64,000 nucleotides of DNA from an uncultured virus (IMG/VR IMGVR_UViG_3300030106_002045) (lineage: Duplodnaviria > Heunggongvirae > Uroviricota > Caudoviricetes): the IMG/VR virus record IMGVR_UViG_3300030106_002045; one strand, written 5' to 3'. The notes under the pieces were generated by a model. It was not told where the DNA came from. It saw nothing but the letters and a program-made list of their open reading frames with translations, and did not search any database. The position numbers were made by a program, and so were the translations under genes. Positions 1,288 through 62,614 of the stretch are shown here, piece by piece. Positions within the stretch are counted from its first letter, which is position 1. Every line of letters begins with the position of its first letter.

Positions 1288-1321
1288 TATTTATAAAATA
1301 TAGAGAAAAAACAATATACAA

Positions 1322-1687
1322 CTATTTAAGATTGAAAGTTGCTTTAGGTGTTTTACTTGCTTGACCGACTTTGTCTTTGTCTTCTGTAGCAATAAAACCT
1401 CTTTCTCTATCCCAATCAAGGTCGATAGTCTTACCACCTTTTTCTAAGAATGCTCTAATAGTCATACCAGATTTATATAATTGAAATCTTTTATAACCAC
1501 CAGATCCTTCTCTTTTTGGGTTTTTATCGACAGTGACTTGTATTCTCGCATCTCTGTCATATTTGTAAGTACCCTTAAATTCTTTAGGGTCCATTACTTT
1601 TGGCTTTTTAACTTTAGCCTTAGGTTTAACAACCGTAGATTGACTCTTTGGAGTAACCTTTGGTTTGATCGCTAGATTAATTGTCAT
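1322..1687 (-). CDS. basic small protein with NPKRxGS...DLxWD domain (putative DNA-binding)
   Basis: K/P-rich N-terminus; close paralogue at 60158..60523 and a distant one at 57283..57672; strong SD. Confidence 0.8.
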   Translation of the reverse strand: MTINLAIKPKVTPKSQSTVVKPKAKVKKPKVMDPKEFKGTYKYDRDARIQVTVDKNPKREGSGGYKRFQLYKSGMTIRAFLEKGGKTIDLDWDRERGFIATEDKDKVGQASKTPKATFNLK

Positions 1688-1755
1688 ATTTCTCCTTTCT
1701 TAATCTAATTTATTTATATACTATATAAGCAACATATTATAAATTTAAACAATAA

Positions 1756-1870
1756 AATCAACCTTGCGAGCAGCCTCGGGTATTGGCGGTATTGGCATAT
1801 AAATAGTACCAATACCAGTTATTATTATTGATATACTTAAATAATAGTCTAAAAGGTATTGGTATTGGCT
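1756..1870. promoter_or_regulatory. GGTATTGG iteron-like element (candidate replication origin), copy A
   Basis: GGTATTGG at 1779, 1788, 1855 and 1861; inverted CCAATACC at 1809; AT-rich tract follows; spacing identical in copy B. Confidence 0.55.
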
Positions 1871-2029
1871 ATTTTTATATTTTTCAAAAAAATATTATTC
1901 AAAAATATTCTCTATATAGTAAGGACCCATAGTAATAAAAAAATAACAAAAGCATAAGCAATTAGATGTCTGAAGAAATAAATCATTAAATTCTTATATA
2001 CGTGATTTTTTAAAAACGAACAAGTATCT

Positions 2030-2356
2030 TTATTGCTCGTTCCTATTTATTTCAAGTAAAGAAACAATACCAGTAACAGTATTTGCTGTGTTAGCAGTCA
2101 AAGATAATGTTTGGTTTTCTTCAAGGACCAACGGTCCATCAAGCAAGTTAGTATGTGTATTGGTTAAAATCTCTTGAATTGCAGATTTAAAATCAGAAGT
2201 GCCATTATTACAAGTTAATGTAACCATTGTGTTTGCGCCTTCGTTTGTCAACTGAACAGTCTTGATCAAAGCTCTACTATCAGAAGGTGTTGTATAAACT
2301 AAATTAGCACCAGTATTCGCTAAATCAACCATTTCATTTTTAAAAATATTAGCCAC
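2030..2356 (-). CDS. small beta-rich virion-type protein
   Basis: MANIFKN...YTTP...IK; paralogue at 61163; similar pattern to 37985..38341; GTG start. Confidence 0.65.
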   Translation of the reverse strand: MANIFKNEMVDLANTGANLVYTTPSDSRALIKTVQLTNEGANTMVTLTCNNGTSDFKSAIQEILTNTHTNLLDGPLVLEENQTLSLTANTANTVTGIVSLLEINRNEQ

Positions 2357-2519
2357 TTAAAAACCATTCCTTTCTTTCGTTTTCATTATTTATATCAGTC
2401 GGATAAGTACTATTCAATATTTTAATCATGTCTTGTAAGTCTTCAATCAATTGATCAAAGTCAACTTCACTATATTCTTTTGGTGCTGAGTTCAATCGGG
2501 ATGTAGGTATCTTAGCCAT
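2349..2519 (-). CDS. 56-aa hypothetical protein (MAKIPTSRLN...ERKEWF), not in the ORF track
   Basis: Translated by hand; conserved in frame at 61487..61657. Confidence 0.75.
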   Translation of the reverse strand: MAKIPTSRLNSAPKEYSEVDFDQLIEDLQDMIKILNSTYPTDINNENERKEWFLSG

Positions 2520-2560
2520 AGTTTACACTAATCCAAAAAAACCTTAAAGTACAACAAAAA

Positions 2561-2728
2561 TTAGTCTTTCTTTTCGCTGTCTTCCTTTATATCTTGCGCA
2601 ACTTCATTTATCTTTTTTTGAATTTGCACCATTTCAATCGTTACCGAGCCGTTGGCTAATAACTTTGAGGCCCATTCAGCCTCGAGGTTTCGCTTCTGGC
2701 CCAACTTCTCTATCAGAGCCGTACTCAT
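2561..2728 (-). CDS. 55-aa coiled-coil protein (QKRNLEAEWASKLLANGSVTIEMVQIQ), not in the ORF track
   Basis: Translated by hand; conserved at 61699..61863. Confidence 0.7.
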   Translation of the reverse strand: MSTALIEKLGQKRNLEAEWASKLLANGSVTIEMVQIQKKINEVAQDIKEDSEKKD

Positions 2729-2918
2729 TATATTCCTCCACTGTTAGCCTATTTTCGTTTTCGGGACCTTCAACGTCTTCCCACCTAAAAGTACCAGGAT
2801 GCTCATTCCAAAGAGCCTTGCTGGCAGCATCTAAATTTTCGCTTTCTACTAAACCTTCAGCGAAGTATCCGCAGCGCCAAAATTTAAAATGCACTAACAT
2901 TAAAAAAACTGCTATCAT
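2676..2918 (-). CDS. hypothetical protein
   Basis: GY.A.GLVES.NLD.A..ALWNE..TFRWED conserved with 61820..62041; true start probably the internal MLV. Confidence 0.7.
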   Translation of the reverse strand: MIAVFLMLVHFKFWRCGYFAEGLVESENLDAASKALWNEHPGTFRWEDVEGPENENRLTVEEYNEYGSDREVGPEAKPRG

Positions 2919-2939
2919 GTTTTTGTTGATTTGTAAAGG

Positions 2940-3494
2940 TTATTTATACCAGTCTGGTATTCGAGTTTTCCAGGTTGCGAAATCTTTTTTATGAGATTTG
3001 TAAAAATTTCTATAAGCATCAATAGTATTTTTTTCGGGGTCATTTGTGCCTGCTATTTTTATTTCGTCAGGCATACATTGTGGTGGTGGTATAAACCCTA
3101 AACATTCTATATTATTTGGTAATTGATACAAATATTGAATAAGTTTTTTATAACAAGTATGAACTTTATCGTATCTGTTTGTGTATTCTTTACACAAGTG
3201 TACCCATAAATTAAGTAAATATAAATAATGTCCCTTAGATTTTCGCACCCATATAGAACTAGGATGATTATAATATGCTGCACGATATATCTTATCTTCT
3301 CTGTAATCTGGTAAAGTCCAGTAAGAAACCATTACTTTACCATTCTTAGATACTTGTTTGCTTTCTTCTCCGTCTAATATTCTATGTGCTGTAGATAATA
3401 ATTGAGCATATTCGATAATCATTTTAACGACATGTTTATCGCAATGATCCTCGGCGCATGCTTTCGGGTCAGAAGATAAATAAAATATATTCAT
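2940..3494 (-). CDS. pyrimidine-dimer DNA glycosylase-like protein (DenV-related family)
   Basis: MNIFYL...HCDKHVVKMIIEYAQLLSTAH, NHP..IW, PPQCMPD, AYR.FY motifs typical of this phage family. Confidence 0.65.
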   Translation of the reverse strand: MNIFYLSSDPKACAEDHCDKHVVKMIIEYAQLLSTAHRILDGEESKQVSKNGKVMVSYWTLPDYREDKIYRAAYYNHPSSIWVRKSKGHYLYLLNLWVHLCKEYTNRYDKVHTCYKKLIQYLYQLPNNIECLGFIPPPQCMPDEIKIAGTNDPEKNTIDAYRNFYKSHKKDFATWKTRIPDWYK

Positions 3495-9038: not shown

Positions 9039-10892
9039 TTATTTAATTGTACCCCAATTATCTCCTTTCTCTATATCTACTTTAAGAGGCACACTTAAAT
9101 TTACAGCATTTTTCATCAAATGTATAGCTTCGTCCACACATTTTTGTTGTAACACTTCAGCACTAAAATCTAATTCATCGTGTACTGTTAATTTTAAATC
9201 TATTTCGTCTAATAAACCTGCTTGCCAAATTTTCAACATAGCAGATTTTGTAATATCTGCTGAAGAGCCTTGAATTAAAGCATTTAATGCAGTATGAGTA
9301 TAAGCTCTTTTTAACTGTTGTTTAGGATATTGAGCATATGCTTCTGATAATGGATATGCTTTCTCTCCCCACATATCTCTTGGTTCCCACAACTCAAATC
9401 TTCTTTTACGACCTAAAATAGTTTTTATAAATCCTCTACTACTTGCAACATTAGATACTTGTTTAGATAATTCTTGAACAAATGGTACTTTAGTATGATA
9501 TTTGTTAAATAAATCATAAGCAGTCTCCTCATCTAAACCTAATTCATTTGCTAATTTTTTTTTACCCATACCATAAAATAATCCTAGATTAATAGTTTTA
9601 GCTTGTTTTCTAGGAATGTTTGCCATAGTTGCAACCATTGTATGAAAGTCTGTATTTTCATCTTTATGAAAAGCATTCTTTACATCGTTAGCTGAGCTAA
9701 TATTTTTAAGACTAGCATAATGTACTAATACTCTTGGCTCTTGTTGACTATAATCTGCGCAAATCCATTCTTGATCTTCTTCTGGTATAAATAGACTTCT
9801 GATCATCGGACCAAGTTCTGGATCTCTCGCAGGAACTTGCTGTAGATTAGGATATTGAGAACTAAATCTACCAGTAACAGTACCCATTTGATTAAAAGAA
9901 CAATGTATTCTACCTTTATTAGCTTTCTCAACAATCATATTTTTAATAAAGGTATTTCTAATTTTGTCTAACTTTCTTATTTGTAGTATAATTTTAGAAA
10001 CGTCATCAGTTTGAGTTTCCAACCAACTCGCAGTAAAACTCGGAGTTCCCTTTGCGGTGTGGTTATACTTAATTGAATTATTATCATAAGCATTTTTTAA
10101 TGAAGCATTTGCCCATACATTTACTTCGCATCCTCCAAGTTTATTTAGTAAATTTTGATTAAACTTTTGTTTTTTTTCAAGATCATTGTATAATCTCTTA
10201 GCTCTTTCAACATCAACACGGACACCTTTGCGTCTTATATGAAATAACATTGGTATTAAACTGTTTTCGAATTTAACAATTCTAGTTATTTCTTGTTTAT
10301 AAATTTGTGGTATTTGTTTAAGATGTATTTCTAAAGTTAATCTAGCATCTTCTTTAGCATACTCTGCAACTTCATTAGCATGTAATCGCCATAAATTTTC
10401 TTTAACTTTAGCACGTTTACCAAATCTATACATTACCGCTTGTTCTAATTCAATTTCGTATTTTGATTTTCTTAAATATTTTTGAGCCAATGACTCTAAA
10501 GAGTATTTTAACCTGTTTTCATCTAACAAATGTTCAGTTACTAATATGTCTAAAATACTGTGATGTCTAGTAAGGGTTAGTCGTGAATCCAGTGAATAAA
10601 GCCACTCTACGTCATACAATGCGTTAGCAAAAACCAGTACATGTCGCTTTTCTTCGTTTTTATTATAAATGTATTTTAAAAATCTTATAACTTTTTCTTT
10701 ATCTAAATTACCACCACCTTGATGATTTATTGGAAAATATTCTGTATAACCAGTATCTGTTGCAATTGAAATACCAGCGACATGACCGTCTTTTCTAAAT
10801 CCACCAGGTCCATTTGTTTTTAAATTAGGATCATGTGTTTCTGTATCAATTGCTATATATTTTGATTTATCTATTTCTTGTACATTAAACAT
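9039..10892 (-). CDS. polA: family A DNA polymerase with 3'-5' exonuclease
   Basis: IDTET exonuclease I, TGRFSS..PNLQQVP, DYSQQEPR (motif A), RKQAKTINLGLFYGMG (motif B, Leu at the 762-equivalent), VHDEL (motif C). Confidence 0.97.
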   Translation of the reverse strand: MFNVQEIDKSKYIAIDTETHDPNLKTNGPGGFRKDGHVAGISIATDTGYTEYFPINHQGGGNLDKEKVIRFLKYIYNKNEEKRHVLVFANALYDVEWLYSLDSRLTLTRHHSILDILVTEHLLDENRLKYSLESLAQKYLRKSKYEIELEQAVMYRFGKRAKVKENLWRLHANEVAEYAKEDARLTLEIHLKQIPQIYKQEITRIVKFENSLIPMLFHIRRKGVRVDVERAKRLYNDLEKKQKFNQNLLNKLGGCEVNVWANASLKNAYDNNSIKYNHTAKGTPSFTASWLETQTDDVSKIILQIRKLDKIRNTFIKNMIVEKANKGRIHCSFNQMGTVTGRFSSQYPNLQQVPARDPELGPMIRSLFIPEEDQEWICADYSQQEPRVLVHYASLKNISSANDVKNAFHKDENTDFHTMVATMANIPRKQAKTINLGLFYGMGKKKLANELGLDEETAYDLFNKYHTKVPFVQELSKQVSNVASSRGFIKTILGRKRRFELWEPRDMWGEKAYPLSEAYAQYPKQQLKRAYTHTALNALIQGSSADITKSAMLKIWQAGLLDEIDLKLTVHDELDFSAEVLQQKCVDEAIHLMKNAVNLSVPLKVDIEKGDNWGTIK

Positions 10893-11356
10893 TAATTTGT
10901 TTTACTTTCTAAAATTTTTAAACTTATAAATGTGTATCCTCTACCTGATTCTTCCCATAATTTTCTAGCCAATTCATGTACATATTTTTCTCCATAAATA
11001 ATTTGATTAGCAGTTGTATTTAAAAGAAGTTTAACACAATGTATACAAGGTTCTAAAGTTGTATAAACTCTATCAATATCATAAACATTTTTACATTGCA
11101 ATAAAGCATTTTGTTCTGCATGTATTGCTTTACATTTATCTAAATCAGTACCACTTTTTGAATCAGCACCTTCACAAGGATCATCTATGCAATGTGTAAA
11201 ACCTGCTGGATTACCATTGTAACCTGTAGCAATTACATGATTTCTTTTATTTACAAAAACACAACCTACTTTACGTCTAGCACAAGTACCTCGTTCTGAA
11301 ACTAATTTAGCCATTTTTAAAAAATAAAAATCAGTAGGTGGTCTATAATTATCCAC
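10892..11356 (-). CDS. dCMP deaminase
   Basis: ATGYNG, HAEQNA, PCIHC zinc motifs. Confidence 0.92.
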   Translation of the reverse strand: MDNYRPPTDFYFLKMAKLVSERGTCARRKVGCVFVNKRNHVIATGYNGNPAGFTHCIDDPCEGADSKSGTDLDKCKAIHAEQNALLQCKNVYDIDRVYTTLEPCIHCVKLLLNTTANQIIYGEKYVHELARKLWEESGRGYTFISLKILESKTN

Positions 11357-12167
11357 TATGTAAAATCCTCATTTTATATTCAGCTTTTTTAAAAGAAAAG
11401 TTTGCTGCTCTTTTTAGAGATTTTATAAATGAGTTAGGTCTATTTTTATATCTGTCTATTAAATCATTCATAGAGAAAATTCTATTTTCATTATGTGTAG
11501 ATATTAAAACGTCATCTAATTTATGAGCATCTGTTTCGTATAAATGTCTACTACCTGCTTGTATTGTTAATTTTCCTAATTTACATTTAATTGCTCTTTG
11601 ATTTAATAATAAACATAAATAAAAAGATATTGCTGAAAAATTAAATGTATCATAAGGTGTTCCTAACCATATATCGTTACTTCTCATTGTAGCAATAGTA
11701 TGTAACCATAATTCATCACTTGCTTCTCTTAAAAAAAATTGTAAAGATAATGTGCAAGGTACATCTAAACTTGATCTAGGATTTTCTCTCCATATATTTA
11801 TTACAGCTTGACGTGTAGATTGATCTTTTTCTAAAGCATCTAATACATAAGGCCATTGATCTATAATTTTAGGACCATATGCTCCATAGAAAGTTATACC
11901 ATTATCACTAAATCTTTTTATAGAATTAGCAAATTTACTTACACTTTCAACATCGTTTCTTCCTTCTAACATCCATGCTGCTTCACCCATCATAAAATCA
12001 TAACTTAATTTTCTTTCTGGTAATGTAATTACAGGGTCGTCCATATCAACAGACCAATTATCATTTAGTATTTCGTAACATTTAAGATTCCTAGGCTTGC
12101 TTATAAATTCTGGTTGTCTATAAATTTGCCAAAGTTTTCTTTTATATTTAATGTCTATATCTTTCAT
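11349..12167 (-). CDS. thymidylate synthase-superfamily enzyme with a dCMP-type specificity residue (dCMP hydroxymethylase/methylase/hydroxylase-like)
   Basis: Catalytic DVPCT, MRSNDIWLGTPYD (Asp where dUMP-specific ThyA has Asn), GSRHLY. Confidence 0.85.
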   Translation of the reverse strand: MKDIDIKYKRKLWQIYRQPEFISKPRNLKCYEILNDNWSVDMDDPVITLPERKLSYDFMMGEAAWMLEGRNDVESVSKFANSIKRFSDNGITFYGAYGPKIIDQWPYVLDALEKDQSTRQAVINIWRENPRSSLDVPCTLSLQFFLREASDELWLHTIATMRSNDIWLGTPYDTFNFSAISFYLCLLLNQRAIKCKLGKLTIQAGSRHLYETDAHKLDDVLISTHNENRIFSMNDLIDRYKNRPNSFIKSLKRAANFSFKKAEYKMRILHSG

Positions 12168-12717
12168 CTATTAATTTATTTGTAAATTCATCTAGTTTAT
12201 GGCCATCTTTAAACATATCGTATCTGATAAAATCTTTTCTTTCTCTTAATGGTGATAAATTTCTTAAAAATACTTGTCTTTTTGGTTTACCAAACCAAGA
12301 AAAATAATAATCATCTATTACTGAATCTATGTTATCATATTCTTCATGTCTTAATTCTTTATTAATTCTATGATTCTCTTTAACTCTAGCAATATCTTCT
12401 GGAATACACCAGACATAATTAGCACCTTGATCTTTTAATCTGTTATATAATAATCTAGGATTATAACTCGGACCATTACTTCTTATGTAAGAGTAGAATT
12501 GTTCACTAGGCCAATGTCTATCTAATAAAACTAAATATCCTTCTAACCTTTTTCTTATTGCTAATCGAGCACTCGCTGTATGCCAGAGTTTCATATTTTT
12601 ATGAACTCTTAAATGCATATAATAAGAGTTTTTATATTTTTTTCTTATGTGATTTATTAATGTAGTTTTGCCTACACCATCTGGTCCTTCAAATATTATT
12701 ATTCCTCTAGTAAACAT
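12148..12717 (-). CDS. dNMP (thymidylate kinase-like) kinase
   Basis: IIFEGPDGVGKTT P-loop, LLDRHWPSE. Confidence 0.8.
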   Translation of the reverse strand: MFTRGIIIFEGPDGVGKTTLINHIRKKYKNSYYMHLRVHKNMKLWHTASARLAIRKRLEGYLVLLDRHWPSEQFYSYIRSNGPSYNPRLLYNRLKDQGANYVWCIPEDIARVKENHRINKELRHEEYDNIDSVIDDYYFSWFGKPKRQVFLRNLSPLRERKDFIRYDMFKDGHKLDEFTNKLIDERYRH

Positions 12718-13727
12718 TTAAAAAATTCTTTCGTTCTTTCTTTAGTCCAAAATTTCTTTTTTAAAATTTCAGCTTGAGTATTAAATATATCAACTAACTC
12801 ATCGCTTCTACAATTTTCTATATTTTTTAAATCATGAACAAATCCTAAGATGCTAGTTTCAGAGGGATGTCCATAAATTATACAACCAGCATCTAATGCC
12901 ATTTTATATCTTACTCTCCACCAACCACTACCTTGTAAAGTATGATAATGAGGTGGACTTATTATACCCCAAATTTTACAATATTCTGCGTAAAGTTCGT
13001 GTTCTTTTAATCTCTCTTGTTTTTCTTTTAAATTACCATAAGTTTTAACTGGCCAACTAAATGTTTGATTTTTTAACCAATTTTGTTTACTTACAAGACT
13101 AGCACAAGCCCAATGTTTTTTTCGTTCTGAAGTTTGATCAGAGAATAAATTTACTAAATCAGGATGTTCTAAATGTAAATTACAATATACTGAAGGATCC
13201 CAATTAATTATTTCTTTAGCTCTCATACCTAGAGTTTCGTAATTACCTCCATCATATGCTGGTATTAATAATTTATGTGGCCATTTTTGAAAAGCAAATG
13301 TATCAACTAAATCTTCAATTTCTTTTTTATAAGGTTGTGCTTCATCCCAATTAACTTTACCTACTGGATTACCTGCTTTACTTAATTTTTTCCAAATTCT
13401 CCAATGACCACGACTAAAAGTTCCAAAACCACTTACTGAATCTTTAGTTTGCCAATCATCAATAGAAACAATTGCGTCAGGTCTTTTAATTAAAGTATAT
13501 GCAGCGCCATACCAAAAACGAGCTGATAAACTATTTGGACCAAATACAAACACAAATACTTTATCATAATGTGATACATCTTCTCCCGGGACTATTGCTT
13601 TCTGAGTTACTTCGTGCCCTAAATCTTTTAAAACTTTAGGTAAAATTCTAGCTGATGTAGATATATTTAATGTACTTCTAGCTGTACCAACAGCTAATGC
13701 GTTAAAACCTGTTATTAGTATCTTCAC
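12699..13727 (-). CDS. GT-B-like putative DNA glycosyltransferase
   Basis: MKILITG...LKDLGHEV.Q....GEDVS.YD.V...IDDWQ, C-terminal GSGWWRVRY..A..AG; recalled similarity to RB69-type putative cytosine arabinosyltransferases; sits in the nucleotide-modification operon. Confidence 0.6.
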   Translation of the reverse strand: MKILITGFNALAVGTARSTLNISTSARILPKVLKDLGHEVTQKAIVPGEDVSHYDKVFVFVFGPNSLSARFWYGAAYTLIKRPDAIVSIDDWQTKDSVSGFGTFSRGHWRIWKKLSKAGNPVGKVNWDEAQPYKKEIEDLVDTFAFQKWPHKLLIPAYDGGNYETLGMRAKEIINWDPSVYCNLHLEHPDLVNLFSDQTSERKKHWACASLVSKQNWLKNQTFSWPVKTYGNLKEKQERLKEHELYAEYCKIWGIISPPHYHTLQGSGWWRVRYKMALDAGCIIYGHPSETSILGFVHDLKNIENCRSDELVDIFNTQAEILKKKFWTKERTKEFFKCLLEE

Positions 13728-14157
13728 GTTGTTTCTCTCTTTCTTCGTAAATAACTTGTTCTATATCTGGTGGTGTCCAACCCTTTGGCTTTACAACATC
13801 AAAAGATGTACCACGTTTTTTTGATTTACTTTTAGCTCTTATCTTTTTCATATTTGCTTTTTGTACTTCTTCCCATGCTTTTTCAAATGGTAAATTAAAA
13901 AGCCAAGCAGTTCCTAAAGCAATATAAACTATATCAACAAGAGCATCTAATGCTGCTGCAGTATCTTTTTTAGTTATTGCTTGTGTATATTCTGCAAGTT
14001 CTTCTAATAAAAAAGAAGTTCTAAAATTTACTAATTCATTATCATCTGGTATTGACACAGTATCATTTTTTTTAAAACCAAATTTTTTATGAAATGCATC
14101 AATATCTCTTATTAAAGTATCTTTATCCATATCATCAAACATATCTACAACAGTCAT
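13702..14157 (-). CDS. MazG-like (all-alpha) nucleotide pyrophosphohydrolase
   Basis: FHKKF, LLEELAEY, LDALVDIVY, EVQKANM.K, KPKGW.PPD. Confidence 0.85.
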   Translation of the reverse strand: MTVVDMFDDMDKDTLIRDIDAFHKKFGFKKNDTVSIPDDNELVNFRTSFLLEELAEYTQAITKKDTAAALDALVDIVYIALGTAWLFNLPFEKAWEEVQKANMKKIRAKSKSKKRGTSFDVVKPKGWTPPDIEQVIYEEREKQREDTNNRF

Positions 14158-15215
14158 CAGAGCAAACTCTCTTGTTCTGGTGCTTTTCTATAATCTACAA
14201 TTTTTAATTCTTCTTTAGTTTTATTTTTATCTTCTATACTATTTTTAATTATTCTTGCTACATATTCAGCTACAGGTGGCATTACACCTCTTGCTATTTG
14301 TGAACCGATACTTGATGATGGTCCTTCCCATTTGTAATCTACAGGATAACCTGCCATGTATGCTAATTCTTTATGACCAAATAATCTATCTTCTGTTGGA
14401 TGAATATAAAAACCACCTGCGATTACTGGTATGTGAGCATCTTCTTTTAATCTCCATTTCATAAACTGAGGTCTACCTTTTACACCACCACGCATACCAC
14501 CTCTTACCCATGTTTCAGGTGGATTATATCTTTCCCATGTTACTCTTAAACTTTCACCTTGTTTACAATATTTTAAATATGGTATTTCATTTTTACCAAG
14601 TTTCATTAGATGTCCTATATCTTTTCCATGTTCTTTTCTAAATGAATCTAAAACTTCTTTAGTAGTTCTTAATGGTTGAAAATTTAAACCACCTGCATTT
14701 AAATTATACTTAGTTGCAATAAAGAAAAATCTTTTTCTACTATGATTTAAACCTGTAAAACCACCATCAATTAATAAATGAGTAACTTGATATCCTAGTT
14801 CATTAGCTTCTTTAGTAAATTCCATGATCATCGGTCTACCACCATTCTTACTATAAACTCTTGGCACTGATTCAATAGCAATTGCTTTAGGATTTAATTC
14901 TTTTAAAAGATTAAAACTATCTCTCCAACACGCAATTCTAGGATCATTTCTCCATGCACCTGCACCTTTTTGTGCTCCACCTAAATTAGACCAAGGAGCA
15001 CATGGTGGATTACAATAAACAAAATCAATTTTATTTTTATATTTTTCTCTTGGCCAATTTTCAACTCCTTCAAAGATAGGTATGTTAGGATAATTTGCTT
15101 GAAAAGTTTTTTTATAAGCAGCAGGTTTACCTTCGAAATGTGCTTCAACATTAAAATGTTTACTTACTCCAATTGTAAAACCTCCTGCAAAAATATATGT
15201 TCCCAGTGCTTTCAT
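14157..15215 (-). CDS. atypical C5-cytosine DNA methyltransferase-fold protein
   Basis: Motif IV NPPC, motif VI ESV, motif VIII HSRKRFF, late HPTEDR; motifs I (YIFAGGF) and X (IARGV) deviate from the canonical FxGxGG and GNAV. Confidence 0.8.
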   Translation of the reverse strand: MKALGTYIFAGGFTIGVSKHFNVEAHFEGKPAAYKKTFQANYPNIPIFEGVENWPREKYKNKIDFVYCNPPCAPWSNLGGAQKGAGAWRNDPRIACWRDSFNLLKELNPKAIAIESVPRVYSKNGGRPMIMEFTKEANELGYQVTHLLIDGGFTGLNHSRKRFFFIATKYNLNAGGLNFQPLRTTKEVLDSFRKEHGKDIGHLMKLGKNEIPYLKYCKQGESLRVTWERYNPPETWVRGGMRGGVKGRPQFMKWRLKEDAHIPVIAGGFYIHPTEDRLFGHKELAYMAGYPVDYKWEGPSSSIGSQIARGVMPPVAEYVARIIKNSIEDKNKTKEELKIVDYRKAPEQESLL

Positions 15216-57052: not shown

Positions 57053-57235
57053 TGTAAAGCTATATTACAAAAAAAAATATTTTTCTAGAGAAATTTATAC
57101 GCATATAAGTCATTCTACACTAACTCTAGCTCTACCTCTAAGACTAACGCCAAATCGCCGCAAACTTTATACGAATTTTTATAAATTAAACTTAATACGA
57201 ATTTTTAAAAAAAGTGAGAGAAAAAAAGATAAAAA

Positions 57236-57267
57236 AAAACTAGCGTAAAATTAATTACGCTAGTTTT
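57236..57267 (-). terminator. rho-independent terminator of 57283..57672
   Basis: aaaactagcgtaa...ttacgctagtttt, followed by a long U-tract on the minus strand. Confidence 0.75.
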
Positions 57268-57282
57268 ATTATTTAAATAATA

Positions 57283-57672
57283 TTAAAGACTTTTTATTTT
57301 TTCTTCGAAGAATTTAATATTTTCGATTATCGAATTATCGACTTTATTTTTTTTAATAAACTCTTTATTCGAGTTAATTAAATCTAAATATAAATCTTTT
57401 TTAGATTTATCGATATACGAATTTAAATCGATTAATAAATTTACTTTTTTAAATCGATTATTTCTAGTCGTATCGTATTCTATATCGACTTTTCTATAAT
57501 CGTTATTAAAAGCGTTTTCTATAGTAGTAGAAAATTTCGCCTTCTCGTAAATTATAAACGACTTAGTTTTATCTCGTTTATTATTAAATAATCTAAATAA
57601 AACTTTTTTATCTTTAAACTCTCTAAAAGATAAAGCTATTTTATTCTCGATTATATTTTTCTTAGTAGTCAT
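57283..57672 (-). CDS. compositionally constrained paralogue of the 1322/60158 protein
   Basis: Own promoter, SD and terminator; NNKRDKTKS...TI...VDIEYD aligns without gaps to NPKREGSGG...TI...IDLDWD; no CA/TG except the start codon. Confidence 0.75.
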   Translation of the reverse strand: MTTKKNIIENKIALSFREFKDKKVLFRLFNNKRDKTKSFIIYEKAKFSTTIENAFNNDYRKVDIEYDTTRNNRFKKVNLLIDLNSYIDKSKKDLYLDLINSNKEFIKKNKVDNSIIENIKFFEEKIKSL

Positions 57673-57740
57673 TAGCTTTCTCGCTTTCTAATTCTTAAAC
57701 TATTTTAATTATTAAAATATTTAAATTTAAGAATTAACGA

Positions 57741-57769
57741 ATATTAAAAAATTTTTTTTAAAAAGTAAA
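57741..57769 (-). promoter_or_regulatory. sigma70-type promoter
   Basis: Minus strand TTTACT-N17-TAATAT upstream of 57672. Confidence 0.5.
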
Positions 57770-57805
57770 TAGTTAATTTCTGTTGTTTTCGCTTGTAGAT
57801 AGAAA

Positions 57806-57839
57806 GAACAAAGATAGAACACTCGTTCTCGTTTCGTTC
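57806..57839. promoter_or_regulatory. paired alphaproteobacterial LexA-type boxes
   Basis: GAAC-N7-GAAC (57806-57820) and GTTC-N7-GTTC (57825-57839). Confidence 0.55.
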
Positions 57840-58023: not shown

Positions 58024-58124
58024 GATCCTTGCGGATCAGCCCTGATCAACTAGATACTAGGATCAAGCTGGATCATCTAGGCTCATGCCACAACAAGCAA
58101 CAGTCGCCTGCCACAACAAGCAAC
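58024..58124. repeat. phased GATC cluster and 16-bp direct repeat downstream of terS
   Basis: GATC at 58024, 58034, 58044, 58061 and 58071; tgccacaacaagcaac at 58086 and 58109. Confidence 0.7.
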
Positions 58125-58129
58125 CGCCG

Positions 58130-58579
58130 TCAATCTAGTTTATGTTCTGATTTGATTTGTTCTAGGTACTTGGCCAAAGCATCATCGTCCATGTTGTCTA
58201 GTGTTGAGTGCTGTACTTCCTTCTTTTCAACAAGGAACCCTAATAGCTGAGACTTCAACCTTATCGCATTGACTGCTGCTGTATATTGTTTCTTGCCACA
58301 AGCATCAACATACAGTTTATCTAGCTTTTCAACCTCTTTTGACACAGACTCACTGGTCAAGCGCCTAGTGTCAACACGCAATCTGTCTATATACTGGAGG
58401 ATTTTATCTTTCTTTAAGTTCCGGGCAGCTTGTACGTGAGCAGAAGTTTCAGAGTAACCTGCTTCAACAGCCGCTTGTCTCTTACCTTTTCCTTGCGCTA
58501 TACCCTCACAAAACTTTTTTTCCATTGAGGATAAAGTCGCTTCGTTGGTTTGATGTATTTGGTCAATAGTTATCGCCAT
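58130..58579 (-). CDS. terS: terminase small subunit
   Basis: L...EKKFC........QAA..AGYS..SA....ARNLK...I..YI, AA..A..L...LLG..VEKKE. Confidence 0.85.
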   Translation of the reverse strand: MAITIDQIHQTNEATLSSMEKKFCEGIAQGKGKRQAAVEAGYSETSAHVQAARNLKKDKILQYIDRLRVDTRRLTSESVSKEVEKLDKLYVDACGKKQYTAAVNAIRLKSQLLGFLVEKKEVQHSTLDNMDDDALAKYLEQIKSEHKLD

Positions 58580-60120: not shown

Positions 60121-60157
60121 AATTATAGAATAAATTAAAATAATCATAGTTATACAA

Positions 60158-60523
60158 TTATTTTAAATCGTAAGTTGCTTTAGGCGTCTTATTAGGCGCA
60201 CCAGCAGCATCGATAACTTCGATTGCAATAAATCCACGTTCTCTATCCCAATCAAGATCAATAGTCTTTCCACCAGCCTTTAAAAATTCTCTAATTTTCA
60301 TGCCAGTTTTGTATAGACTAAATCTCTTGTATCCACCAGATCCTTCTCTTTTAGGATTTTTTGGAACTTTGATTTGGATTTTAGCATCTCTATCATACTT
60401 ATATGTACCCTTGAATTGTTTAGGATCCATAGCCTTACTTTTTACTTTAGCCTTAGGTTTAACTACTTCTGACTTTTTAGTCTTAGGAGTTACCTTAGGT
60501 TTTGTAGCCAAGTTAATAGACAT
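60158..60523 (-). CDS. paralogue of 1322..1687
   Basis: Near-identical core KGTYKYDRDA...NPKREGSGGYKRF...GGKTIDLDWDRERGFIA. Confidence 0.8.
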   Translation of the reverse strand: MSINLATKPKVTPKTKKSEVVKPKAKVKSKAMDPKQFKGTYKYDRDAKIQIKVPKNPKREGSGGYKRFSLYKTGMKIREFLKAGGKTIDLDWDRERGFIAIEVIDAAGAPNKTPKATYDLK

Positions 60524-60597
60524 AACACTTTCTCCTTTCTATATTTATTTTATATATTTACTATATAAGCAACCAATTATAAATTAAAACAATAAAA

Positions 60598-60828
60598 TTA
60601 AACCTTAGCTTTATTAGTGTGAGTAAATCCTTCTTTTTTAGCAGACTTAACTCCTGCTAATCTTTTATTATCATCAGATTTATTTTCTTTTTTACTAAAT
60701 TCATCAAAATTTTGGTCAAGCCAATTATCAAATTCAAGTCTATCAAAATCTTCATCAATGAGACCCATATCTTTAGCTTTATCAAAGTATTTATCGACAC
60801 CTTTATCTGTTTTAGGAAATTTAGCCAT
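60598..60828 (-). CDS. hypothetical protein present only in copy B
   Basis: 76-aa ORF inserted between the conserved element and the 60158 gene. Confidence 0.6.
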   Translation of the reverse strand: MAKFPKTDKGVDKYFDKAKDMGLIDEDFDRLEFDNWLDQNFDEFSKKENKSDDNKRLAGVKSAKKEGFTHTNKAKV

Positions 60829-60881
60829 AATTATTAATTTATACTATATATAAAAAATTAATAAATAAAATTAAACAAGAA

Positions 60882-60996
60882 AATCAACCTTGCGAGCAAC
60901 CTCGGGTATTGGCGGTATTGGCATAAAATAAGCTCCAATACCAGTTATTATCATTGGTATAATTGAATAGTAGTCGAAAAGGTATTGGTATTGGCT
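60882..60996. promoter_or_regulatory. GGTATTGG iteron-like element, copy B
   Basis: GGTATTGG at 60905, 60914, 60981 and 60987; CCAATACC at 60935. Confidence 0.55.
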
Positions 60997-61162
60997 CTTT
61001 TTATATTTTTTCATTTTATTTTTTTCAAAAATATTTTCCTTATTAGAATAACGTGAATAATATAATTAGCATAATTATTAAAAAAACAAAATCTTTAAAT
61101 ATAAATATCATGGAGATATTATCTTTTATACTATTATTTTAAAGGAAGTACAAGTATCTTAA

Positions 61163-61486
61163 TTATTCATTCCTATTTATTTCAAGTAAAGAAAGCACTC
61201 CAGAAACGGTATTTGCTACATTGGCAGTAAGAGATAATGTTTGACTTTCTTGAAGGATCAAAGGCGCATCAACAAGGTTACTATGAGTGTTAGAGCTTAT
61301 TTCTTCAATAGCAGTATTAAATGTATTTGTTAAATTATTTGAAGTTAATGTTACTAAAGTGTTAGCTCCGGAGTTAGTTATTTGAACACTTTTGATCAAT
61401 GCTCTACTATCAGATGGTGTTGTATAAATTAAATTAGCACCAGTGTTAGCTAAACTAAACATCTCATTTTTAAAAATATTTGCCAT
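61163..61486 (-). CDS. paralogue of 2030..2356
   Basis: MANIFKNEM..LANTGANL.YTTPSDSRALIK. Confidence 0.75.
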   Translation of the reverse strand: MANIFKNEMFSLANTGANLIYTTPSDSRALIKSVQITNSGANTLVTLTSNNLTNTFNTAIEEISSNTHSNLVDAPLILQESQTLSLTANVANTVSGVLSLLEINRNE

Positions 61487-61657
61487 TTATCCTCCTAAAA
61501 ACCAAGTCTTTCTTTCTTCTTCATTTGATTGATCTTCTTGAAAAGTTGAATTTAAAATTTTAATCATATCTTGCAAATCTTCAATAAGTTGATCAAAATC
61601 AATTTTATTGTAATTTTCAGGTGCAGTATTTAAACGTGACGTAGGTATCTTTGCCAT
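61487..61657 (-). CDS. paralogue of 2349..2519
   Basis: MAKIPTSRLN...DFDQLIEDLQDMIKILNST. Confidence 0.75.
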   Translation of the reverse strand: MAKIPTSRLNTAPENYNKIDFDQLIEDLQDMIKILNSTFQEDQSNEEERKTWFLGG

Positions 61658-61698
61658 AGCTTACACTATTCCAAATGTATACGAAAGTACAACAAAAA

Positions 61699-61863
61699 CT
61701 ATGTTTCTTGTTCTGTGTCCTTCTTAATATCTTGTGCAACTTCATTAATTTTTCTTTGAATTTGCACCATTTCAATTGTTACTGAGCCATTAGCTAGTAA
61801 TTCAGAAGCCCATTTGGCTTCAAGGTTTCGCTTCTGGTTCAGTTTTTGTTCCAGACTGCTCAT
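61699..61863 (-). CDS. paralogue of 2561..2728
   Basis: QKRNLEAKWASELLANGSVTIEMVQIQ. Confidence 0.7.
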   Translation of the reverse strand: MSSLEQKLNQKRNLEAKWASELLANGSVTIEMVQIQRKINEVAQDIKKDTEQET

Positions 61864-62041
61864 GCCATTCCTCCACAGTTAGTGTGTTCATTTCATTAGG
61901 TAGATAGTTAGTCATATCTTCCCATCTAAAAGTTGTGACTGGCTCATTCCAAAGAGCCGTGACAGCTTTATCTAAGTTATCGCTTTCAACTAGGCCTTTA
62001 GCATAGTATCCGTAGCGCCTAAATTGAAAAAACACTAACAT
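61820..62041 (-). CDS. paralogue of 2676..2918
   Basis: GLVESDNLD.A..ALWNE...FRWED. Confidence 0.7.
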   Translation of the reverse strand: MLVFFQFRRYGYYAKGLVESDNLDKAVTALWNEPVTTFRWEDMTNYLPNEMNTLTVEEWHEQSGTKTEPEAKP

Positions 62042-62080
62042 TTATGTTAGGGCTAACACATTTTTATCGTTTTGTAAAGG

Positions 62081-62614
62081 TTATTTATACCACTCAGGTA
62101 CTTGATTTTTCCATGTAGCAAACTCTTTCTTGTGAGCCATGTAAAAAGTTCTATAAGCTTCAACAGTATCTTCTTTTTTACACTCATCTGGCATACATTG
62201 AGGTGGTTGAGTAAAATTACCTATATCGATGTTTTTAGGAAATTGATAAATATGTTGAATTAATTTTTTATAAGTATCGTGGACTTTATCATATCTTTTA
62301 GTGTATTCTTTACAAAGAGCACACCACAAATGTAATAACCACCTATAATTATCTTTATTTAATCTACACCAAATAGCACATGGGTGATTATAATATGCTG
62401 CTTTATATAAAATATTTTCTTTTTCGTCAGGTAAAACCCAATATTTTACCATAGTTTTACCATTTACTGATAATCTAGTTTGTTCCTCGCCATCTAATAT
62501 TCTATGAGCAGTAGAGAGCAGTTGTGCGTATTCAACAATCATTTTAGTTACGTGTTTATCGCAATGATACTCGGCGCATTTATCAGTATGGAAGTCTAAA
62601 TAAAAAATATTCAT
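62081..62614 (-). CDS. pyrimidine-dimer DNA glycosylase-like protein, paralogue of 2940..3494
   Basis: HCDKHV.KMI.EYAQLLSTAHR. Confidence 0.7.
   Translation of the reverse strand: MNIFYLDFHTDKCAEYHCDKHVTKMIVEYAQLLSTAHRILDGEEQTRLSVNGKTMVKYWVLPDEKENILYKAAYYNHPCAIWCRLNKDNYRWLLHLWCALCKEYTKRYDKVHDTYKKLIQHIYQFPKNIDIGNFTQPPQCMPDECKKEDTVEAYRTFYMAHKKEFATWKNQVPEWYK

Follow-up and report, generated by a model that had tools for sequence, protein, structure and literature searches.

We examined a 64,000-nucleotide (nt) stretch of DNA from an uncultured virus of the class Caudoviricetes (IMG/VR record IMGVR_UViG_3300030106_002045), referred to below as the window, in which a gene for a protein of 129 amino acids (aa) at 57283..57672 on the minus strand lies in an island of DNA almost free of the dinucleotides CA, CC, TG and GG. 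This island gene is the recoded member ("copy 2") of a family of small basic phage proteins (isoelectric point, pI, 9.7 for the window protein), and in related phages a normally written paralogue stands beside it. On balance we lean towards a reading in which a demand made on the DNA itself has recoded a family member, and in which the gene and its control signals together form a cassette free of some enzyme's targets. The gene had been picked out in an earlier note, drawn up from the window's sequence, as a recoded paralogue of the NPKR...DLxWD protein encoded near the head of the window.

Avoidance of four dinucleotides and its imprint on the protein

The core of the island, 57216..57781, is nearly devoid of the four dinucleotides on either strand; it contains only two occurrences, where about 53 would be expected from base composition. 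CA and CC are missing altogether (20.9 and 3.9 expected, respectively), TG occurs once (21.9 expected), in the ATG start codon, and GG occurs once (6.3 expected), at 57540-57541; CG, with 23 occurrences against 5.0 expected, is enriched 4.6-fold. The sole GG is a synonymous strain variant, AAG where other strains have AAA, and is absent from most of them. Elsewhere in the window CA, CC, TG and GG show no avoidance (observed/expected 1.02-1.13), and the depleted dinucleotide is CG (0.52); over the whole window the mean gap between the four dinucleotides is 5.8 nt. Exactly one such island was found in each of five genomes, the lowest 400-nt segment of each genome holding 0-10 of the forbidden dinucleotides compared with a median of 65-68.

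The avoidance takes in the leader, the coding region and the terminator, crosses codon boundaries and is equal on both strands, and the upstream spacer is likewise depleted as far as a G+C-rich element with GGATC-type repeats. The longest free runs among the related loci reach 921 nt. In locus L048 the open reading frame (ORF) at 1094-1504 lies within a free run (758-1678) that begins more than 330 nt ahead of its start codon and ends about 170 nt after its stop codon. The four avoided dinucleotides make up two reverse-complement pairs. Their absence from either strand, from codon junctions and from the flanking DNA suggests to us a constraint on double-stranded DNA and not on RNA or translation.

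The ORF at 57283..57672 is a real gene under purifying selection. Its reading frame is open in 79 of the 80 IMG/VR loci compared, the 80th being truncated by the end of the locus, so that all 79 complete loci are intact. The ratio of nonsynonymous to synonymous substitution (dN/dS) is ∼0.18 for the recoded copy (383 pairs) and 0.15 for the normal copy of related phages (49 pairs), both values denoting purifying selection. Among the 79 complete orthologues, 16 ORFs carry none of the forbidden dinucleotides, 35 carry one (that of the ATG), 23 carry 2-5 and five carry more than 5. In the 16 ORFs free of them, the region of the start contains neither ATG nor GTG nor TTG; ATA occupies the place of ATG behind the same purine-rich leader, from which we read apparent initiation at ATA in these orthologues.

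In related phages the gene order is terS (terminase small subunit), a normal family member, the recoded member and the terminase large subunit gene (terL), with a ferredoxin-like gene before the latter in most cases. In the closest relatives with a tandem pair (loci L021-L024, L039, L047, L056, L059-L062 and L064) the two proteins share 72-85 of 126 residues, or 57-67% identity (8 pairs). The first copy has 37-48 forbidden dinucleotides per ORF, contains P and Q, and carries the motif N-P-K-R; the second copy has 0-2, lacks P and Q, and reads N-T-K-R or N-N-K-R at the same motif. Both units come complete with a G+C-rich element of GGATC repeats, an A+T-rich leader, a purine-rich stretch for ribosome binding and a terminator hairpin of their own. 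The window holds the recoded unit alone, the tandem normal copy being absent from it. The strength of avoidance in the second copy is graded, with 0-1 forbidden dinucleotides in the clade of the window, 3-9 in L109-L118 and 13-21 in L081-L107, and a comparison of gene content between the window and four complete relatives (G001-G004) revealed no gene that tracks it.

The imprint on the protein is strong. Over 66 orthologues C, H and W do not occur at all and G, M, P and Q each account for at most 0.16% of residues, a composition that agrees with the one noted earlier for the window protein. The idea that all orthologues would lack these seven amino acids applies to the recoded branch, but the family also has normally composed members. 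When the tandem copies were compared (8 pairs), a changed amino acid was seen at 113 of 176 codons with an inner forbidden dinucleotide and at 159 of the 590 clean codons. The remaining forbidden-dinucleotide codons were recoded synonymously, TCA to TCT, ACA to ACT and CTG to CTA being common, and several of the replacements (P to N, P to T, P to A, Q to N and Q to D) need transversions. Avoidance has forced synonymous codon changes and has also put other residues in place of P, Q, G, M, H, C and W. The earlier proposal that selection on the DNA has driven the protein sequence is borne out by these codon changes and by the contrast in dinucleotide counts between the two copies, and we hold selection at the DNA level to be well supported.

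Relationship to the NPKR...DLxWD protein

The NPKR...DLxWD protein (1322..1687, minus strand; 121 aa) consists of a Lys/Pro-rich tail and a globular domain of ∼50 residues, and we are confident that this domain is homologous to the N-terminal part of the island protein (residues 16-69). A second gene of this kind, at 60158..60523 on the same strand, encodes a protein with 75% identity to the first and lies in a diverged repeat of the window head. The gapless alignment of 38 residues on which the relationship had been proposed was reproduced with its 8 identities (N, K, R, K, T, I, D and D), and the translations confirmed that the island protein has a different residue at each aligned P, G, Q, M and W of the 1322 ORF. 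BLASTP, run on this one pair, aligned 42 residues in that register, with 9 identities and an E value of 0.01. When the island protein was compared with 98 ORFs of the window, the match to the 1322 ORF had an E value of 1.6 (19.2 bits), one unrelated ORF scoring higher and another equally high. The pairwise match on its own is at chance level. It would accord with a chance or compositional similarity, as would the Lys-rich nature of both proteins and the low confidence of the structural model of the 1322 protein.

We nevertheless judge a chance match to be very unlikely, on the strength of profiles and intermediate sequences, through which alone the similarity is significant. An hhalign comparison of a profile of the island family (A1, 15 sequences) with one of the 1322 family (A2, 20 sequences) gave a probability of 80% and an E value of 1.4e-5 over 46 columns, in the register of the earlier note; its score of 38.5 compares with scores of at most 19 in 122 null runs (120 column shuffles and 2 reversals). 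Against a profile of the broader NPKR-domain family (A3, 49 sequences) the probability rose to 94.2% and the E value fell to 1.1e-7 over 54 columns. A library search with the island protein returned 39 representatives, of which P0213, P0214, P0226 and P0228 are of ordinary composition; two long matches of this search, P0221 and P0231, were dismissed as unrelated repeat proteins. P0213 serves as a normally composed bridge, matching the island protein with an E value of 9e-13 and the 1322 ORF with an E value of 4e-7 (BLASTP, 13 of 38 identities, gapless and in the same register). The tandem normal copy, moreover, itself has the NPKR motif.

The model of the 1322 protein (predicted local distance difference test, pLDDT, 53.8) has its elements in the same order as the island protein, with an offset of 26 residues. 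Of the invariant residues of A3 (N56, P57, K58, R59, Y71, G84 and D93) the island protein keeps only N, K, R and D; at this offset its residue is N where the family has P, K where the family has Y, and D where the family has G. Since the losses of P and G are those that the dinucleotide rule forces, we regard the island protein as a recoded relative and not as a typical NPKR member. It shares with the NPKR...DLxWD proteins of marine phages the homologous domain of ∼50 residues (strand, three short helices, strand), but differs from them in having a C-terminal helical hairpin instead of the Lys/Pro-rich tail and in the replacement of the invariant P, G and W. No Pfam, NCBIfam or PHROG function and no solved structure was found for the NPKR...DLxWD proteins. 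The description of the island gene as a recoded paralogue of the 1322 protein therefore stands as far as the shared domain is concerned, but the 1322 gene is related to it only distantly, at the level of this domain, and the true normally encoded counterpart is the full-length tandem paralogue beside terS.

Control signals and the possible source of the dinucleotide rule

The island gene is furnished with its own signals, all on the minus strand. Downstream lies an intrinsic terminator (57227..57267) built of allowed dinucleotides only, with a 13-pair hairpin (57267-57236) followed by a T run; it folds with -16.5 kcal/mol (z -6.7), and none of 200 shuffles did as well. Directly before the start codon is a purine-rich, Shine-Dalgarno-like stretch without GG (57676..57689), which aligns in 19 of 19 upstream regions, ahead of either ATG or ATA. 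Upstream of it a leader hairpin with an A/U stem of six pairs (57702..57718) has a weak folding energy, but all six predicted pairs show compensatory two-sided changes in at least one of 18 sequences. Further upstream are two adjacent boxes (57806..57839), GAAC-N7-GAAC at 57839-57825 and GTTC-N7-GTTC at 57820-57806. They supply two of the three matches to this pattern in the 64-kb window (shuffle mean 1.2), and the GAAC-N7-GAAC box is kept in all 19 aligned upstream regions. The upstream region of the normal copy of L021, the sole normal one inspected, has no GAAC/GTTC box. A scan for sigma-70 promoters found 7 sites against 7.5 expected, and no promoter could be named.

This pattern is given as the consensus of alphaproteobacterial LexA sites in PMC3091678. 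The boxes at 57806-57839 lie where such sites would, in the presumed promoter region of the gene. The boxes hint at an alphaproteobacterial host and at damage-gated expression, and their resemblance to LexA sites suggests that the gene is regulated and not, as had been offered as a possibility, simply expressed first. In L034 the box forms part of an 11-nt tandem repeat, in view of which a binder other than LexA is possible.

The simplest rule that describes the island is that no cytosine is followed by A or C on either strand, and such a rule is what a single dinucleotide-specific enzyme would read. Candidate readers are a nuclease of the host and, from the phage itself, the C5-methyltransferase or a hypermodification pathway. 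On this view no other stretch of the genome would be free of targets, the cassette would differ chemically from the rest and so in expression or survival, and the upstream LexA-type box may gate its expression. Escape from modification or cleavage is the cause that we tentatively put forward on this analysis, as a conjecture of less than even weight.

A candidate source of the rule, judged from gene content, is a nucleotide/DNA-modification module at 10892..15215 (minus strand). Its genes encode a deoxycytidine monophosphate (dCMP) deaminase, a divergent thymidylate-synthase-like protein, a P-loop kinase-like protein, a 342-aa protein of unknown function (phrog_14998), a MazG-type pyrophosphohydrolase and a C5-cytosine methyltransferase (14157..15215), and the window also encodes two 2-oxoglutarate (2OG) oxygenases and a glycosyltransferase. 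To judge by its predicted products, the gene row may serve to make a modified pyrimidine for the DNA. The C5-methyltransferase is present in four of four complete island-bearing relatives, and TBLASTN detected the rest of the module in all four. The cultured relatives HTVC027P and 023Pt_psg01 have no island within their first 50 kb, and the methyltransferase and the thymidylate-synthase-like gene are absent from two of two relatives without an island in that range. Among deposited phages we found no close relative of the C5-methyltransferase of the window.

Phage enzymes that read two or three bases have been described. Thymidine hypermodification in phages acts at TG/TC (PMC6449724), phage C5-methyltransferases read GpC[C/T] and feed TET enzymes and glycosyltransferases (PMC8256090), and some HTVC023P-type clades carry genes for thymidine hypermodification (PMC9599517). 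There is likeness in that TG is among the dinucleotides avoided here and in that this phage has a C5-methyltransferase, a thymidylate-synthase-like gene, a kinase-like gene, MazG, 2OG oxygenases and a glycosyltransferase. Unlike in those systems, TC and GC, their targets, are common inside the island, and any modification in this phage is a prediction from its genes. In the available text of the literature that we searched for such islands, no gene-sized modification-free island was found. In its most specific form, which we consider doubtful but possible, our proposal would make the cassette the only part of the chromosome without targets of a dinucleotide-reading modification by the phage, that is, by its C5-methyltransferase with perhaps further elaboration. 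It would then be a "bare" copy of a gene for a chromatin-like protein, gated by the LexA-type box, beside or instead of the modified copy.

Several observations weigh against the reading that we favour. The four dinucleotides are undepleted genome-wide and CG is depleted, which gives no hint of a CA/CC methylation target. The association of module and island rests on five against two related genomes and is confounded by kinship, and the methyltransferase fails to separate the clades with strong avoidance from those with partial avoidance. The island corresponds approximately to one transcription unit, as a cause at the RNA level would also predict. Finally, the poor model of the 1322 protein leaves the homology without support from structural superposition, and the island protein was matched to no known fold or family.

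A nuclease of the host or of a competitor that cuts cytosines before A or C could impose the same rule, the cassette being spared and its gene remaining expressible during attack. Both-strand symmetry and the graded strength of avoidance among clades fit a principle of "fewer sites is better", and through the LexA-pattern box DNA damage could switch the gene on. We consider this explanation unlikely, however. With one of the four dinucleotides every few nucleotides elsewhere, the sparing of 0.6-0.9 kb would not save the genome, and we know of no nuclease with a CA/CC-type specificity. General restriction-site avoidance can be rejected, as many 4-base palindromes are still possible in the island and TCGA-type sites are abundant there.

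Phage DNA that enters the cell first is known to avoid restriction targets, as in the first-step-transfer region of T5 and the leading end of T7 with gene 0.3. The island resembles these as a short, self-contained region shaped by enzymes acting on DNA, with a gene that is thought to act alone. The differences are that four whole dinucleotides, and not a few sites of 4-8 bp, are avoided over 0.6-0.9 kb, that the protein sequence and sometimes the start codon have been changed, and that a normally written paralogue exists. The island is placed between terS and terL, and its position on the contig varies among the complete relatives G001-G004 (the contigs are metagenomic).

A constraint on the messenger RNA, whose transcript would resist an endoribonuclease (a host toxin or a phage shut-off enzyme), appears to us improbable. 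In its favour, the core island begins ∼110 nt ahead of the start codon and ends ∼12-20 nt beyond the terminator, roughly one transcript, and the covarying leader hairpin shows that RNA structure matters there. The concept is also in print, in the form of ACA-less messages that resist MazF, their coding sequence having been rewritten to remove the nuclease target; as in the island, synonymous and conservative changes remove a short target and the protein is kept. An RNA rule needs no strand symmetry, however, and the complementary pairs are absent alike on both strands. The free runs of several loci, that of L048 among them, exceed the likely transcript, and depletion reaches through the upstream spacer up to the GGATC element. 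In ACA-less messages a single trinucleotide is removed from one strand (RNA), whereas the island is strand-symmetric, concerns four dinucleotides and includes flanking DNA.

Least credible, and largely refuted, is a mutational scar left without selection on a duplicated copy by context-specific deamination, as in fungal repeat-induced point mutation: the recoded unit is indeed the second of two tandem duplicates, the gene has 20.5% G+C against 31.6% for the window and C-to-T change at CpA would yield loss of CA and TG, but the low dN/dS, the intact frames, the transversions among the replacements of P and Q, the enrichment rather than decay of CG, the synonymous nature of the only GG and the persistence of avoidance across lineages with a dS of ∼0.66 all speak against it.

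Two further candidates were discarded. Contexts of ultraviolet (UV) or oxidative damage were rejected as a cause, since TT, TC and CT are abundant inside the island, and a diversity-generating retroelement was rejected because no reverse transcriptase is found among the annotated ORFs of the window.

The avoidance of short motifs by phages is usually statistical and genome-wide; here it is absolute and local, and it has stripped a protein of seven amino acids and a fifth of the orthologues of their ATG start. The adjacent normal paralogue is a built-in control and makes of the pair a natural experiment on how a demand at the DNA level reshapes a folded protein. The island points to an undiscovered dinucleotide-specific enzyme activity in an abundant group of uncultured marine phages, and its rule supplies a search pattern for similar cassettes elsewhere. 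If the proposal of a target-free cassette is true, a protein has been rewritten to a DNA alphabet of 12 dinucleotides, including a non-AUG start, and its expression has been uncoupled from the epigenetic state of the genome.

The island protein and its genomic setting

Despite its recoding the protein has a confidently predicted fold (AlphaFold, pLDDT 91.3), the modelled elements being a strand (23-26), helices at 37-45, 51-56 and 61-67, a second strand (79-81) and a helical hairpin (89-127). Searches of Pfam, PHROGs and NCBIfam gave no family for the island protein, the 1322 protein or 24 longer NPKR-domain relatives. A sequence search of the PDB returned weak ribosomal matches only, Foldseek found nothing at E <= 0.001 for the island-protein model in the PDB and BFVD, and the ESM Atlas yielded unnamed viral clusters only. 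With VIA-align against 48,161 chains the best Z score was 4.1, which is not a convincing fold match. Since no known fold or family was matched, the binding of DNA or other nucleic acid, which had been proposed earlier, is a guess from the charge of the protein (pI as above), and the role of pioneer factor or anti-defence protein that the earlier note put forward is conjecture. The homodimer prediction score was 0.00, which we counted neither way.

The island protein has more than 1500 database relatives, and none of the deposited phages encodes it (search with the low-complexity filter on). At 90% identity its relatives fall into ∼1500 database clusters, nearly all singletons, compared with 72 clusters of up to 171 members for the NPKR protein; the excess could be true microdiversity or an artefact of clustering low-complexity sequences. 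In another database protein, P0199 (141 aa), the initial ∼70 residues of the recoded protein are followed by what, on the basis of a motif, may be the C-terminal part of a DNA methyltransferase; it could be a real fusion or an assembly chimera. Among metatranscriptome contigs, those of runs X19 and X20 cover terS and those of X19 also the ferredoxin-like gene. On the island they gave short, loose-ended, low-complexity matches only and, being contigs, they are silent on expression.

The source of the ORF at 57283..57672 is an uncultured marine podovirus-like phage. The window, a marine phage sequence with ∼31.6% G+C and 97 of 103 chosen ORFs on the minus strand, encodes a full structural module alongside a replication module. 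The large terminase subunit shares 42-44% identity with those of HTVC023P-type pelagiphages, and at DNA level the window matches these phages in one auxiliary gene only. The head of the window (1315-3494) and its tail (60151-62614) are 73-75% identical, and each of the four complete relatives, of 59-64 kb, has a single NPKR...DLxWD gene. The window probably spans a little over one genome length and runs into a diverged copy or a second strain. Head and tail have the same gene order (a Pyr_excise-like gene, two small PHROG families and the NPKR gene), with different intervening genes.

The conserved upstream neighbour of the island gene is terS (58130..58579, minus strand), which in the window is followed by a non-coding spacer of 457 nt. 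Directly after its stop codon comes the G+C-rich element (58024..58128), composed of four GGATC-type hexamers (58024-58075) and a 23-nt tandem repeat (58086-58128). This element precedes each unit in relatives with two gene units and could be a packaging or operator site. Among the IMG/VR loci L001-L080 many short contigs begin or stop within a few hundred bases of the island; these ends may be assembly breaks at an A+T-rich, strain-variable stretch and not genome ends. On the other side of the gene, between the island terminator and the ferredoxin-like gene (phrog_3704), a 26-nt tandem repeat occupies 57162-57211 (1.9 copies, 91% matches).

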